Of a stretch of 64,000 bases of DNA, positions 58,938 through 64,000 are shown one piece after another. Positions within the stretch are counted from its first letter, which is position 1. Every line of letters starts with the position of its first letter. The notes below the pieces were generated by a model. It did not search any database. It was given only the letters and a program-made list of their open reading frames with translations, and was not told the origin of the DNA. This DNA is from Haloplasma contractile. GTDB lineage: Bacteria; Bacillota_I; Bacilli_A; Haloplasmatales; Haloplasmataceae. The stretch lies in contig JAENYC010000002.1 of NCBI GenBank assembly GCA_016841945.1, positions 100,275 to 164,274 of the forward strand. The letters are read 5' to 3'. The translations under genes and the position numbers were made by a program.

Positions 58938-58959
58938 AAACTAAATGAAAAGGAGTGAA

Positions 58960-59295
58960 ATGATGAGTGATTATCATGAAGATGTAAAATTACTAGATGA
59001 AAAAACGAAGGATTGTGCAAGAGCACTTAATAGTTTAAAAGAAGAAGTTGAAGCGGTTGATTGGTATCATCAACGGATGAGTGCATCGAAAAATGAAAAT
59101 TTAATCAAAATATTAAAGCATAATCGCGATGAAGAAATTGAACATGCCTGTATGATGATAGAATGGCTAAGACGTAATATGGATGGATGGGATGAACAAT
59201 TAAAAACATTCTTATTTAAGAATGAACCCATTACAGAAATTGAGGATGAGATGGAAGAAGAGTGCGATTCATTAAAAATTGGAAATTTAAAGTAA
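58960..59295 (+). CDS. encapsulated ferritin-like protein (EncFtn) cargo with C-terminal encapsulin-targeting peptide
   Basis: AGGAG SD before ATG 58960/58963 (track start 58945). EEVEAVDWYHQR...HNRDEEIEHACMMIEWLRRN matches the EncFtn di-iron motifs. The C-terminal DSLKIGNLK matches the family-1 cargo-loading peptide consensus (SLxIGxLK). Confidence 0.85.
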   Translation: MMSDYHEDVKLLDEKTKDCARALNSLKEEVEAVDWYHQRMSASKNENLIKILKHNRDEEIEHACMMIEWLRRNMDGWDEQLKTFLFKNEPITEIEDEMEEECDSLKIGNLK

Positions 59296-59299
59296 AGGA

Positions 59300-60097
59300 G
59301 TGATTGATATTTTAAATAGAAAAAATGCCCCTATAAGCCAAGAGGTATGGGAGGAAATTGATGAAAGAGCAAAAGAAGTCATCAAGAGTTATTTATCAGC
59401 AAGAAAAACTCTACATGTTGTAGGTCCTAAAGGATGGGATTATACAGCAGTTGAAGAAGGTAGATTAGGAAAAATAAGTGATTATAATGATCATGTTAAA
59501 TATGCGAGTTTTTTAGTTAAACCGTTAGTAGAGGCTAGAGTTGAGTTTGAAATGGACCGTTTTGAACTAGATAATTTAAGAAGAGGTGCTAAGGATATTG
59601 ATTATAAACCTCTTGAAGATGCGGTAAAAGAAATGGCTTTATTTGAAGAAAATGTGATTTACAAAGGATTAGAAGAAGGCAAGATTAACGGTTTATTAAA
59701 CGATTCAGATAAGAAAGTTATCAAATTAAGTCAAGAATCAGAAGAAATCGTAGATGCGATATCTGAAGGTATGATTCAATTAAGAGAAGCATTTGTGGAT
59801 AAACCTTATACCCTTGTTGTTGGAAGTAAGGTCTGGAAATTAATCAATAGACATATAAAAGGCACTGACCTATTGAAAAAGATAGAAAACATATTAGAAT
59901 CAAAAGTTGTCTATAGTCATGTATTAGAGGGTGCATTATTATTACCATATGACCATGAAGATTTAGAACTCACAATAGGACAAGATTTTACGATTGATTA
60001 TCAAGGTCATGACCATGAAAAGATTAAATTTTATGTAACTGAATCATTTACATATAGAACGTTAGATAAAGATATTATCATACAATATAATTTATAA
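59300..60097 (+). CDS. family 1 encapsulin shell protein (linocin M18-like, HK97 fold)
   Basis: Colinear with T. maritima encapsulin: NAPISQEVWEEIDERAKEV / APLTEKQWQEIDNRAREI; GPKGWDY / GPYGWEY; LTIGQDFTIDYQGHDHEKIKFYVTESFTY / [29 protein letters not shown]. Start codon is uncertain (GTG 59300 overlaps the RBS). Confidence 0.85.
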   Translation: MIDILNRKNAPISQEVWEEIDERAKEVIKSYLSARKTLHVVGPKGWDYTAVEEGRLGKISDYNDHVKYASFLVKPLVEARVEFEMDRFELDNLRRGAKDIDYKPLEDAVKEMALFEENVIYKGLEEGKINGLLNDSDKKVIKLSQESEEIVDAISEGMIQLREAFVDKPYTLVVGSKVWKLINRHIKGTDLLKKIENILESKVVYSHVLEGALLLPYDHEDLELTIGQDFTIDYQGHDHEKIKFYVTESFTYRTLDKDIIIQYNL

Positions 60098-60103
60098 TAA
60101 TTT

Positions 60104-60132
60104 AAAAGCCATAGATAAATTCTATGGCTTTT
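60104..60132 (+). terminator. rho-independent terminator AAAAGCCATAG-ataaatt-CTATGGCTTTT
   Basis: Read directly, after the encapsulin gene. Confidence 0.7.
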
Positions 60133-60187
60133 AATATGCAATGTAGTATAATGTATATATAATAACAAGTTTGAGTGGAGGTTTTAA

Positions 60188-61207
60188 ATGAACAGTTTAC
60201 ATGAAAAGTTAAATCAAATAAAAAGTAAGATGAAACAGTGTGATTTTTCTAATCAATCTGTTTCATGCAAGGTGTTAGAAACCATAGTAAAAATAGCGGG
60301 AACAGCTCCATCAGGTGCAAATTGTCAACCTTGGACTTATGTTTTAGTTAAAGATGAAGAAATCATTCAGTCGATAAGTTCTGAGTCATTATATATAGTC
60401 GTATTATTTAAACAAAACTATGGTGTAGGAAAGAATAAAGAAATCATTAAGCATTATTATGCCCATGAATCCGCTTGTTTATCTGGGGGAATGTTTTTAG
60501 CGGGACTTCATTATGCGAGTATTGATTATAAATTACTGCCTATCGATCCTTCGTTAAATGGTATATTGAAAAGACCTAAACATGAAAAACCTGTTTTATG
60601 CCTATCAATAAAAGGTAATAATACAAAACAAGGTAAATTAGAACCAGAACTAGATGAGTATTATGAATTGATGAGGAAAAGAAGAAGTATAAGACGTTTT
60701 CAACCACAATCCTTTGATAAAAACATCATTCATCAAATGATTGAGCTTGTTCACACTTTGATAAAAGATGATGGATATCGTTTTGTTGTTGTGGATGAAT
60801 CTAGTAAAAAGGAAAAAATAAGAAATGCGAGTGAACAGAATGAAAAAAGACTATATAAAGAATTAATATCTGATGAATGGAGAAAAGCTTTAAAACCATT
60901 AGGTACTAATTGGGAAAAACCACATTTAACAGAAGCACCTTATTTAATTGTTGTGTTTAGTAAAAGTCGTTCTTCTAAAACAATGGCAGGAATAGCTTCA
61001 GGTATGCTTATTCAAATACTTCATTATATAGGACTCAGTACCTTGACTTATACACCGAGTCCTATGAAATTTTTAAATGAGATATTAGATATTTCTTTAG
61101 AGGAAAAACCATTAATGGTACTCCCTGTAGGTTTTAAAGATGAAACTTTCCAATCCCTTAATATAAAGAGAAAAAAATTAAAAGAATTTTATATAAAACA
61201 ATGGTAA
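60188..61207 (+). CDS. nitroreductase-superfamily protein with two tandem or permuted nitroreductase-like halves
   Basis: First half has AGTAPSGANCQPWTYVLV (the APSxxNxQPW motif). Second half starts with the canonical MRKRRSIRRF motif, but its QPW region is degenerate. Confidence 0.55.
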   Translation: MNSLHEKLNQIKSKMKQCDFSNQSVSCKVLETIVKIAGTAPSGANCQPWTYVLVKDEEIIQSISSESLYIVVLFKQNYGVGKNKEIIKHYYAHESACLSGGMFLAGLHYASIDYKLLPIDPSLNGILKRPKHEKPVLCLSIKGNNTKQGKLEPELDEYYELMRKRRSIRRFQPQSFDKNIIHQMIELVHTLIKDDGYRFVVVDESSKKEKIRNASEQNEKRLYKELISDEWRKALKPLGTNWEKPHLTEAPYLIVVFSKSRSSKTMAGIASGMLIQILHYIGLSTLTYTPSPMKFLNEILDISLEEKPLMVLPVGFKDETFQSLNIKRKKLKEFYIKQW

Positions 61208-61809
61208 TTAATGAAGTTTAGTAGTAGTTATATAGTGTCATTGAAATTTATGAAAATCCAATGTTATAATTGACCAGTTTATAGGACATTTTACTTAAAA
61301 TACAGTACATTGGTCATAGTAACGATAATATATTTGCATCCTTCGTATCATTAAAGGGAATATTAAGTTTTAAAGAATTTAAAAGATTTAAAGGTGAATT
61401 TGGTGTTATCTTATATCAGCTATTTAAAATAGTCATTTCTATTTCCCTCTCATTTCACAGACTGAAATAAGTATACCAAAAAAGATAACCTAATTGATTA
61501 TGTTATTACCAAAATTGGTAGTTTTCTCACAATCATTTTTGGTTATCTTTATATTATCATTAATATCTGTGGTTTTATATTAAAAATATAAGGACAAATA
61601 CTTTTTAATTTTAATATAGATTTTTATAATATTAATAATTATTCTACTTAAAAATAGCTATGAAAAAATCAATGATAGAATATAGCATCAATGCAATACC
61701 ACTCCCGATTAGATATATATAGTCGTATAATTAGTGGTGTTTATAGTGTTTAACGAATATATTATCATTAAAATTTAGAGAGTATTTAACGGTGTTTTTA
61801 ATAAACGAA

Positions 61810-62058
61810 TCAATTAATTTTATCAGTGTTTATCTTGATAAATCCTTCAATAACTTTTGGAGTTCTTTTAGATGTTATAACATATTTTATTTCAATAGGC
61901 AATTTATTAAAAATTAAATATGTTGGTAAAAATATATTGGTATATTGCTTAATATAACTTACATTATATTTTATAATTTCAAATTCATCATCCTCGAAAA
62001 TATCATAATTGAAAGTAGAGGCGAAATGGTTGTTGAATTTATTTTTTTCTTGTTCCAA
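61810..62058 (-). CDS. hypothetical protein (82 aa)
   Basis: ORF only. Sits in an AT-rich island, divergent from the GIY-YIG gene. Confidence 0.3.
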   Translation of the reverse strand: MEQEKNKFNNHFASTFNYDIFEDDEFEIIKYNVSYIKQYTNIFLPTYLIFNKLPIEIKYVITSKRTPKVIEGFIKINTDKIN

Positions 62059-62135
62059 TTTGCTATCATAGTTATTTATCGATACGTAATTAGTTTGGTA
62101 GAGTTATTATTAAATATAAAAATAAATACCAAAAT

Positions 62136-62609
62136 ATGGTTCGTAATGCATCGAAGTTGATTAACGAATTAGAAGTTTTAGAAATTTTACCTAATATGTA
62201 TACAGGAGAGGATTTTAATGGATACGAAAATGTTAATTTATCTTATGATCAACTAAAAATTGCTTTAGAAAGGAATAAGACATATATTAACGCATTCAAA
62301 AATCAGAAAGCAGTTTATCTTATTACTGACAAAAATACTGGGAATCTTTATGTTGGTTCTGCAACCTCTAATAATGGTATGCTCTTATCAAGATGGATGG
62401 ATTATATAAAAAGCGGACATGGAAAAAATAAAGCATTTATAGATATTATTTATAATCCAATTAAAGGGTTTGATTATATTAAGAAATATTTTCAATATTC
62501 TATATTAGAAAATTATAATCCAAAGGTTAGTGATGAATATATTCTTAAAAGAGAATCTCATTGGAAAAGAGTATTATTAAGTAGAAATATGGGCTATAAT
62601 AAAAATTAA
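62136..62609 (+). CDS. GIY-YIG nuclease-domain protein
   Basis: KAVYLITDKNTGNLYVGSATSNNGMLLSRWMDY matches the GIY-YIG core (VY.I.....G.LYIGSA....RW). No clear SD. Confidence 0.55.
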   Translation: MVRNASKLINELEVLEILPNMYTGEDFNGYENVNLSYDQLKIALERNKTYINAFKNQKAVYLITDKNTGNLYVGSATSNNGMLLSRWMDYIKSGHGKNKAFIDIIYNPIKGFDYIKKYFQYSILENYNPKVSDEYILKRESHWKRVLLSRNMGYNKN

Positions 62610-62948: not shown

Positions 62949-62977
62949 TTGACAATGTATACTTTATTAAATATACT
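62949..62977 (+). promoter_or_regulatory. sigma-A-like promoter TTGACA-17-TATACT driving the toxI-like repeat array and toxN-like gene
   Basis: Read directly. Predicted TSS is about 22 nt before the first repeat. Confidence 0.55.
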
Positions 62978-63006
62978 AATAGTAGATACTAATTTATTGG
63001 AATTTT

Positions 63007-63117
63007 CGGGTGAATCTCCACCCTAAAGAGAGAACGATATATACGGGTGAATCTCCACCCTGAAGAGAGAACGATATATACGGGTGAATCTCCACCCTAA
63101 AGAGAGAACGATAATTA
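63007..63117 (+). ncRNA. toxI/antiQ-like type III antitoxin RNA: three tandem 37-nt direct repeats (CGGGTGAATCTCCACCCTAAAGAGAGAACGATATATA)
   Basis: Copies at 63007-63043, 63044-63080 (1 mismatch, A>G) and 63081-63117 (3' end diverged). Each copy contains the hairpin GGGTG-aatctc-CACCC. Located between a promoter and a terminator directly upstream of a ToxN/AbiQ-like ORF. Confidence 0.75.
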
Positions 63118-63124
63118 CTGAAAA

Positions 63125-63160
63125 CTCCTAATAGAATAAATTAGGGGTTTTCTTTTTTTA
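63125..63160 (+). terminator. rho-independent terminator (CTCCTAAT-agaataa-ATTAGGGG + TTTTCTTTTTTT) between repeat array and toxin ORF
   Basis: Read directly. Same arrangement as toxIN and abiQ loci, where a terminator limits read-through into the toxin gene. Confidence 0.65.
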
Positions 63161-63172
63161 TAGGAGGGTAAA

Positions 63173-63805
63173 GTGGATATAAAATTTTATGAGGTAAGCA
63201 ATGATTATATTAAATATTTTAAAAAATATGATAGGAATGTTAGGTTGAATGAAGGGGAAAATTATCAGCATAATAGAAAATACATTGGTGTAATATTAGA
63301 GATAAATTCATTAAAGTATTTTGCACCTCTGAGTTCACCTAAGGGGTCAGACTATAAAGATGATACTAAAACGATTATTAGAAAGAGTAAAATATTTATA
63401 CATAGAATTGTTTATGGGACTCAATTACTTGCAACAGTTCGTATTAGTAATATGATACCAGTTCCAGATCGTTATATAAATCTTTATGATTTAGATAATG
63501 AACCTGATAGGAAATATAAAAAACTATTGTTGAAACAATTTCGAGTAATAAAAAGAGAATTTTCCGAAATTAAAAAATCAGCACTCAGATTATATACTCA
63601 AAAAAATAAAGGTGAAAAACATTCGTATTTACGCTCAACTATAGATTTTAAGAAAATTGAACAAAAGAGTTCAGATTATATAAAAAAATTAGAAGATTTT
63701 GAATCGCATGTTGGAGTAATTGAAACATCTTCGATCACTAAAGAATCAAATAAATCTAAAAATAATTCAGTGGATGTAGAGAGTGTATTAAAAAAGGATG
63801 CTTAG
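63173..63805 (+). CDS. ToxN/AbiQ-family type III toxin (sequence-specific endoribonuclease; abortive-infection protein)
   Basis: AGGAGGG SD, then GTG 63173. N-terminus MDIKFYEVSNDYIKYFKKYDRNV...NRKYIGVILEINSLKYFAPLSSPKG parallels the AbiQ/ToxN N-terminus (MKFY..S.KYIEYLK.FD.KV...IGIVLEI..HKYLAPL(T/S)SPK). 210 aa, with about 35 extra C-terminal residues relative to AbiQ/ToxN. Confidence 0.75.
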   Translation: MDIKFYEVSNDYIKYFKKYDRNVRLNEGENYQHNRKYIGVILEINSLKYFAPLSSPKGSDYKDDTKTIIRKSKIFIHRIVYGTQLLATVRISNMIPVPDRYINLYDLDNEPDRKYKKLLLKQFRVIKREFSEIKKSALRLYTQKNKGEKHSYLRSTIDFKKIEQKSSDYIKKLEDFESHVGVIETSSITKESNKSKNNSVDVESVLKKDA

Positions 63806-63842: not shown

Positions 63843-63890
63843 AGCACAAGAAGTCTATTGCGATTTTACTTGTGCTTTTTATTGTTTTTT
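63843..63890 (+). terminator. hairpin AGCACAAG-18 nt-CTTGTGCT + TTTTTATTGTTTTTT after the toxin gene
   Basis: Read directly. Confidence 0.5.
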
Positions 63891-64000
63891 AGTTGAAATT
63901 TTAAACTGAAAATAATGTTTCTATGAAAGATGTTTTTTAAATTAATAGGTAGTGTAAAATAGATTGTGTAAAATAGTAGAATGAACTTAAGGCGCCAGGT

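Follow-up and report, generated by a model that had tools for sequence, protein, structure and literature searches.

Does a short stretch of the Haloplasma contractile chromosome encode a complete toxin-antitoxin module with an RNA antitoxin, and does this module stand apart from the systems already described? The question is raised by positions 62949-63805 of the 64,000-nucleotide (nt) stretch analysed here (contig JAENYC010000002.1; "the window" denotes this whole stretch), where an initial annotation made from the sequence alone had proposed a type III toxin-antitoxin (TA) module of the ToxIN/AbiQ type. We consider it very probable that the locus is a chromosomal type III TA operon of the toxIN (ToxN/AbiQ) family. 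The proposal of such a module is supported by Pfam, PADLOC and Protein Data Bank (PDB) matches of the toxin, its predicted fold and catalytic residues, the layout of the locus and a covarying pseudoknot in its repeats. The locus is complete and apparently intact, and is a divergent new member of the family; the case for a distinct subfamily is not supported by the grounds on which it was first put forward.

Organization of the locus

All of the elements were found where the initial annotation had placed them and in the order it had given. They follow one another on the + strand as a promoter, three 37-nt repeats, an intrinsic terminator, a Shine-Dalgarno (SD) sequence and a 210-amino-acid (aa) open reading frame (ORF):

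62949-62977, + strand: sigma-70-type promoter, -35 TTGACA at 62949-62954, 17-nt spacer, -10 TATACT at 62972-62977 (consensus match, 11/12)
63008-63044, + strand: antitoxin repeat unit 1, 37 nt, predicted ToxI-like pseudoknot, G1 at 63008 (repeat finding, mapping onto ToxI)
63045-63081, + strand: antitoxin repeat unit 2, differing at a single site in loop L2 (A18 to G)
63082-63118, + strand: antitoxin repeat unit 3, with the 3' linker GAUAAUUAC in place of GAUAUAUAC
63120-63159, + strand: predicted intrinsic terminator, 13-bp stem at 63120-63152 with a 7-nt loop, T-run at 63153-63159 (terminator scan, fold)
63163-63167, + strand: Shine-Dalgarno GGAGG, 5-nt spacer to the GTG (sequence reading)
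63173-63805, + strand: toxN-like gene, 210 aa, GTG start, endoribonuclease domain at residues ~3-175 and unconserved, weakly modelled tail at ~181-210 (ORF, Pfam, PADLOC, PDB, structural model)
63844-63889, + strand: possible toxin-gene terminator, 7-bp stem GCACAAG/CTTGTGC, 18-nt loop, T-rich tract (sequence reading, tentative)

The promoter is the best match within the 1.4-kb region, and a TTGAC(A/T)-17-TAnnAT promoter occupies the equivalent site 5' of the arrays in related loci. It would drive the antitoxin array and, through read-through, the toxin gene. Terminator-like sites in the region number two, against 0.3 expected. The hairpin between array and toxin gene, followed by seven T, is present in both the minimum free energy and the centroid folds of the transcript, and a hairpin is kept at the same position in related loci. 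By analogy with the Pectobacterium atrosepticum system ToxIN_Pa (PMC3401426, PMC5772629), this predicted terminator is expected to be leaky and to set the ratio of antitoxin to toxin. The scan was limited to loops of at most 8 nt, and the candidate at 63844-63889 was consequently not called by it. The GTG at 63173 is the correct start of the toxin gene, because residue 3 of the ORF aligns with residue 1 of ToxN.

The toxin protein

The 210-aa product scores 123.8 bits with the Pfam ToxN_toxin profile (PF13958; cut-off 25, E=9.4e-36), covering profile positions 2-159 of 159, and matches the PADLOC AbiQ model at E=1.6e-41; NCBIfam gave no family for it. Its sequence matches in the PDB are ToxN_Pa (2xd0, 3.7e-22), the Escherichia coli toxin ToxN_Ec (7d8o, 4.5e-22), the Bacillus thuringiensis toxin ToxN_Bt (4ato, 1.2e-15) and AbiQ (4glk, 4e-13). 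An AlphaFold2 model built from 20 homologues (mean predicted local distance difference test score, pLDDT, 86.3; residues 1-180 confident) returned the same proteins as its top four Foldseek hits, in the order ToxN_Pa, ToxN_Bt, ToxN_Ec and AbiQ, at target template modelling (TM) scores of 0.80-0.82 and probability 1.00. These were followed by CptN (4rmo; TM 0.53, E=2e-3, 17% identity) and then by MazF-type noise. Membership of the CptN or TenpN families was not supported, since the Pfam search returned PF13958 alone and CptN was not among the PDB sequence matches. The likeness to ToxN/AbiQ that the initial annotation had read from the ORF is thus borne out both by the profile search and by comparison with the AbiQ and ToxN structures.

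The active site of ToxN comprises K33, T52, S53 and K55 (PMC8860590), and in the alignments with 2xd0 and 7d8o these positions correspond to R35, S54, S55 and K57 of the window's toxin. Three of the four (R35, S54 and S55) are invariant in the 20 homologues, and K57 is kept in at least 90% of them. An arginine in place of K33 has already been described in E. coli clusters 4 and 5 (PMC8860590), and the change of T52 to serine is conservative. On sequence and predicted fold, the ORF product is a ToxN/AbiQ endoribonuclease with a predicted domain spanning approximately residues 3-175.

This domain is followed by a C-terminal tail (about residues 173-210, ~35-40 aa) that is without counterpart in the homologues, most of which end at 170-175 aa or have unrelated tails; the tail peptide had no significant match in the related loci. 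A Lys/Ser-rich tail of ~35 aa had been noted initially. The tail is present, but its composition (S7 E5 V5 K5 D3 N3) is Ser/Glu/Val/Lys-rich and net acidic rather than simply Lys/Ser-rich. The pLDDT of the model is below 50 at residues 185-199, and the tail is probably disordered.

The antitoxin repeat array

Tandem Repeats Finder reported a period of 37 nt at 63007-63113, with 2.9 copies, 97% matches and a score of 207, and a second repeat search found three copies at 37-nt spacing. The 28-nt core of the unit, allowing up to one mismatch, occurs three times in the window, never outside the array, and not once in 100 dinucleotide-preserving shuffles. The array ends 55 nt 5' of the toxin start codon on the same strand. 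Its copies stand head-to-tail without spacers and are homologous to ToxI, which ruled out CRISPR-like or attenuator repeats.

In the solved ToxI pseudoknot, stem S1 is made up of four canonical pairs of which the two central G-C pairs are conserved, G5 makes the turn, A6 touches ToxN, A19 and A20 form A-minor contacts, and stem S2 has four pairs including U12-U22, which stacks with G21; the single-stranded overhangs hold the recognition and cleavage sequence (PMC8860590). The reference 36-nt ToxI unit used here matches plasmid pECA1039 (NC_011767.1) at 100% and agrees with a primer in PMC5772629. The window's unit aligns with ToxI positions 1-26 without gaps. Its predicted S1 pairs are G1-C16, G2-C15, G3-C14 and U4-A13, so that the two central G-C pairs are kept, and its predicted S2 pairs are C11-G23, U10-A24, C9-G25 and U8-A26. 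The ToxI S2 pairs 11-23, 10-24 and 9-25 are retained, the latter two through changes on both sides. G5, A6, A19, A20 and G21 are the same as in ToxI, and the sole substitution between copies, A18 to G in copy 2, spares the conserved A19 and A20.

For a covariation test, 27 whole-period units, ToxI_Pa among them, were aligned with MAFFT without regard to structure, and the ToxI stems were imposed on this alignment. Under these stems 80.6% of cells are paired, whereas sliding the 3' partners by 1-3 columns leaves 43-57% paired; the covariation score reaches 0.366, and the slid versions do not exceed 0.166. None of 500 column shuffles reached the observed pairing or covariation. Changes on both sides occur in three of the four S2 pairs and in two S1 pairs, and compensatory changes are found even within single arrays (copy 1 against copy 2 in locus L012, copies 1-2 against copy 3 in L007, and copy 1 against copy 2 in L021; L numbers designate loci in our comparison set). 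Both stems thus covary across relatives, and the repeat unit is predicted to fold as a ToxI-type H-pseudoknot.

The possibility that the repeats act in cis, as a leader or attenuator of the downstream gene, or are a chance tandem duplication and not a trans-acting antitoxin, was considered in the light of Rfam. With the E limit set at 10, the region gave only a match to the PyrG leader, which covers the last repeat and the terminator and lies well below threshold (23.5 bits, gathering score 65, E=2.3); at gathering thresholds no family was found over the whole window. The PyrG match is a weak point in favour of a leader, and amounts to little more than the terminator hairpin. In sequence and structure the units are homologous to ToxI, with covariation, and homologous arrays accompany related toxin genes. 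The missing Rfam match to ToxI is uninformative, because Rfam also misses the canonical ToxI on pECA1039. A cis-acting or accidental origin of the repeats is accordingly highly improbable.

Linker sequence and predicted processing

The single-stranded linker of the unit is GAACGAUAUAUAC, of which the AU-alternating part is GAUAUAUAC, and no AAAU, AAAAA, GAAAU or A-run is found anywhere in the unit. Most relatives have AA to AAAAA in their linkers; L025, the closest relative, is likewise without an A-run. ToxN_Bt has a 34-nt repeat and cuts at A/AAAA. ToxN homologues and clusters differ in the sequence of the overhang and in specificity (PMC8860590). Since GAAAU and an A-run are both missing from the unit, the motif of this toxin, if it is self-processing, must differ from the known ones. 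By geometric equivalence with ToxI, the cut would be expected near A32/U33/A34 of the unit, at ~63039-63041 and ~63076-63078.

The linker without GAAAU or an A-run is the sole mildly unusual trait of the locus. It is conceivable, though less likely than not, that the toxin is a ToxN homologue that cuts within the alternating AU linker GAUAUAUAC, a motif unlike the A-rich ones known so far, and carries a probably disordered, acidic, Ser-rich tail adding regulation (e.g. as a degron or for partner binding); the ToxIN family would then include a new specificity class, with this toxin as its founder.

Several observations count against the reading of the locus as a functional toxIN operon. The non-canonical U12-U22 of ToxI is replaced by C12/A22 in the window's unit, and pairs 1-16 and 11-23 are frequently unpaired in relatives that have an L2 loop of another length. 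Taken singly, the 4-bp S2 helices are not significant per unit when compared with shuffled downstream arms (P 0.05-0.7). Short helices form readily in arms with a pyrimidine/purine bias, and only the family-level covariation with its slide controls is informative. The linker has no A-rich cleavage motif, so that self-processing is not predictable from the known specificities. Finally, apart from an ORF resembling GIY-YIG nucleases and UzuA, the neighbourhood yielded neither mobile-element genes nor further defence genes.

Some of these features would suit a decaying or inactive relic, in which the toxin is inactivated or unexpressed and the repeats are left over. The toxin is a singleton protein with an unconserved 35-40-aa tail, possibly derived from loss of an ancestral stop codon, its gene has a GTG start, and the U12-U22 pair of ToxI is replaced by C/A. 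We nevertheless regard a relic as very unlikely, as the ORF is intact, all catalytic and fold-defining positions are conserved, residues 1-180 are confidently modelled, the repeats are 97% identical, the promoter matches at 11 of 12 positions, and the terminator and the SD sequence are both strong.

Relationship to characterized type III systems

The nearest characterized relatives of the intact toxIN operon are the ToxIN systems of P. atrosepticum pECA1039 and E. coli (2xd0/2xdb, 7d8o), whose toxins share with that of the window the Pfam family, the fold (E~4e-22, TM 0.80-0.82) and the catalytic positions, at a protein identity of about 30-38%. The layout of promoter, repeats, terminator and toxin is the same, and their units of 36 nt, against 37 nt here, have the same S1 and S2 stems, G5/A6 and A19/A20/G21. 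Differences lie in the number of repeats (2.9 here, 5.5 in P. atrosepticum and 4.6 in E. coli cluster 1), in the K33 to R and T52 to S changes and the extra ~35-aa tail of the toxin, and in the unit, which has C12/A22 for U12-U22 and the linker GAACGAUAUAUAC without GAAAU. The window locus is chromosomal in a low-GC organism, whereas ToxIN of P. atrosepticum and E. coli is borne on a small plasmid.

ToxIN of B. thuringiensis pAW63 (4ato) is of the same family and fold (E=1.2e-15, TM 0.80), has a Firmicute host and an array of ~3 repeats, but its toxin is a weaker sequence match than ToxN_Pa and ToxN_Ec. AbiQ/antiQ of Lactococcus lactis pSRQ900 (4glk) is an abortive-infection type III TA system with the same PF13958 domain, and the window's toxin matches the PADLOC model of that name; AbiQ is farther from it than ToxN_Pa and ToxN_Ec (E=4e-13 vs 4e-22). 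The antiQ array of about 2.8 repeats of about 35 nt resembles that of the window in length and copy number, which are the two features compared. CptIN (Eubacterium rectale, 4rmo) and TenpIN share the general logic of an antitoxin of repeat RNA, together with a terminator and a toxin that is an endoribonuclease, but their toxins belong to other families (CptN matches the model weakly, at TM 0.53), and their repeats measure 40-48 nt and 39-57 nt, respectively (Blower 2012, PMC3401426).

A further likeness is to uncharacterised toxIN loci found in Fusobacteria and in Firmicutes from gut and rumen (e.g. Coprobacillus sp. 29_1, L001-L021, L025-L028 and Fusobacterium phage phiFN37), with toxins that are 43-50% identical. 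These loci share 36-42-nt arrays of 2-3 copies, the GGUG...CACC...AAG...purine-arm design, the terminator and the promoter, while the sequence of the unit and its AU-alternating linker are specific to the window locus.

Family size and the question of a distinct subfamily

The initial annotation had inferred a distinct subfamily from a unit of 37 nt in three copies, from the C-terminal tail and from a supposed lack of characterization in Erysipelotrichaceae-like gut Firmicutes. None of these grounds held. Blower 2012 (PMC3401426) described 67 toxIN loci with repeats of 38.1 nt on average (31-62), 2.8 copies on average (1.9-5.6) and toxins of 70-288 aa; the window's 37 nt, 2.9 copies and 210 aa represent the family average. 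The tail is unconserved and modelled with low confidence, and C-terminal extensions are commonplace in the family, given that many of its clusters are 200-433 aa long. The same survey already listed Coprobacillus sp. 29_1 (Erysipelotrichales) and many toxIN loci of gut Clostridiales (PMC3401426), and relatives of the window's toxin are routinely named by NCBI, as "type III toxin-antitoxin system ToxN/AbiQ family toxin".

When 1.84 billion representatives of clusters defined at 50% identity were searched exhaustively, the family came to 1,224 clusters with an E limit of 1e-3, and to 327 with a limit of 1e-10. The window's toxin forms a singleton cluster with its nearest relative at 49-50% identity, and no relative closer than 50% was found among 5.8 billion clustered proteins. 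An identity of ~50% to the nearest relative is typical for the toxIN family.

A genome scan yielded 23 related loci (gut and rumen Clostridia, Lachnospiraceae, Erysipelotrichaceae, Coprobacillus and Leptotrichia), and four more were taken from contigs encoding the closest homologues. In nearly all of them a promoter of the TTGAC type comes first, then 1-3 units of 36-42 nt (longer in L027 and L028), a terminator hairpin and the toxin gene, and the array layout recurs 5' of about 20 related toxin genes. Three loci (L008, L016 and L017) have a single ToxI-like unit between promoter and terminator, which is under the minimum of 1.9 copies recorded in 2012; as read from the sequence, L017 starts directly after the apparent 3' end of a tRNA gene. 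In L020, a 2.9-copy ToxI-like array at ~2525-2640 lies ~400 nt 5' of the toxin and is followed, at ~2850-2900, by another sequence that resembles a promoter and by a degenerate unit beside the toxin, which suggests that this antitoxin region was duplicated or rearranged.

Genomic context

The window ends 195 nt 3' of the toxin gene, and the context was therefore read from the upstream side. The genes found there are ordinary chromosomal ones, encoding an FtsX/ABC transporter, a LuxR-type two-component system, an EncFtn-encapsulin pair and a nitroreductase-like protein. At 58945-61207 (+ strand), an operon of the encapsulated ferritin (EncFtn-like, 2e-38) and the encapsulin shell (Linocin_M18, 2.5e-80) precedes a 339-aa ORF with nitroreductase-family matches. 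Between this gene and the next ORF lie ~930 nt of very AT-rich DNA (61207-62136; GC 0.22-0.23) with no ORF above 82 aa, which may be a degraded or recently acquired segment at the edge of an inserted island. A scan of the whole window found no tRNA.

Directly 5' of the ToxIN locus, at 62136-62609 (+ strand), is a 157-aa GIY-YIG nuclease ORF (Pfam GIY-YIG, 7e-6) that matches the PADLOC model of the Uzume defence protein UzuA at E=1.2e-38, though only over the C-terminal half of the model (135-278 of 278). The ORF may represent a nuclease that stands on its own, a defence gene that was truncated, or the relic of a homing endonuclease. Truncation was not supported, as the upstream frames are full of stops and hold no N-terminal remnant. 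A role as a conserved partner of ToxN was not supported either, with no co-occurrence in 28 related loci. On the other side of the toxin gene, near the end of the window, 63944-63976 holds a 14-nt tandem repeat, AATAGATAGTGTAA, in 2.4 copies with 89% matches.

Proposed mechanism and biological role

A mechanism can be proposed by homology with ToxIN_Pa and ToxIN_Ec (PMC3401426, PMC5772629, PMC8860590, PMC10853763). One promoter would transcribe the three tandem 37-nt repeats constitutively; most transcripts would end at the terminator, and a minority would read through into the toxin gene. By analogy with ToxIN_Pa, this partial termination would leave the antitoxin RNA in excess over the toxin mRNA. 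The 210-aa endoribonuclease would cleave the array RNA at one site in each unit, within the single-stranded linker; the ~37-nt pseudoknots so released would remain associated with it in an inactive, closed ribonucleoprotein, presumably a 3:3 triangle as in the homologous systems. The antitoxin RNA is expected to be unstable and would decay when transcription stops, for example on phage-induced host shut-off. The freed nuclease could then cleave cellular and phage RNA, leading to growth arrest and aborted infection. Processing of the array, the stoichiometry of the complex, toxicity, trigger and anti-phage role would all follow from analogy with these systems, and homology points to abortive infection as the probable function of the locus.

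The module might instead be a genuine ToxIN system whose main role is the stabilization of an island or mobile element (addiction, post-segregational killing) or a stress response, and not the abortion of phage infection. Relatives are encoded on 240 plasmids, most of them mobilisable or conjugative, as well as on several phages. The closest relative (L025, 1310-2266; 49% identity) lies directly 5' of the conjugation genes TrbL_2 and PrgI, and that copy therefore rides on a conjugative element. Phage protection was moreover shown for only some members of the family (Blower 2012, PMC3401426). The visible flanks of the window locus, by comparison, consist of ordinary chromosomal genes without integrase or transfer genes, and the characterized systems ToxIN_Pa, ToxIN_Ec and AbiQ are all anti-phage systems. 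We consider a primarily element-stabilizing or stress-related role rather unlikely, and note that element-stabilizing and anti-phage roles are not mutually exclusive.

Implications for annotation

The antitoxin RNA had been described as unannotated and invisible in an ORF track. This is correct for the window, but is no peculiarity of the locus, since ToxI arrays are unannotated generally, including on pECA1039. On that plasmid (L024 in our set) the canonical ToxI array is overlaid at 1172-1393 by a RefSeq "hypothetical protein" coding sequence (CDS), which is spurious, and none of the families of Rfam 15 detects the canonical ToxI at E up to 1. From the CDS laid over ToxI and the lack of Rfam detection it follows that type III antitoxin RNAs are systematically un- or misannotated.

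The significance of the finding lies mainly in annotation, with one intact, divergent toxIN locus from a low-GC, gut-type Firmicute added to a family of ~1,200 clusters. The ToxI-type design (GGUG-N6-NNCC ... AAG ... purine arm) generalizes to distant lineages of the gut and the rumen, and a covariance model with which to annotate type III antitoxins could be built starting from it. The AU-rich linker, in turn, offers a cheap test case for the diversification of ToxN cleavage specificity.

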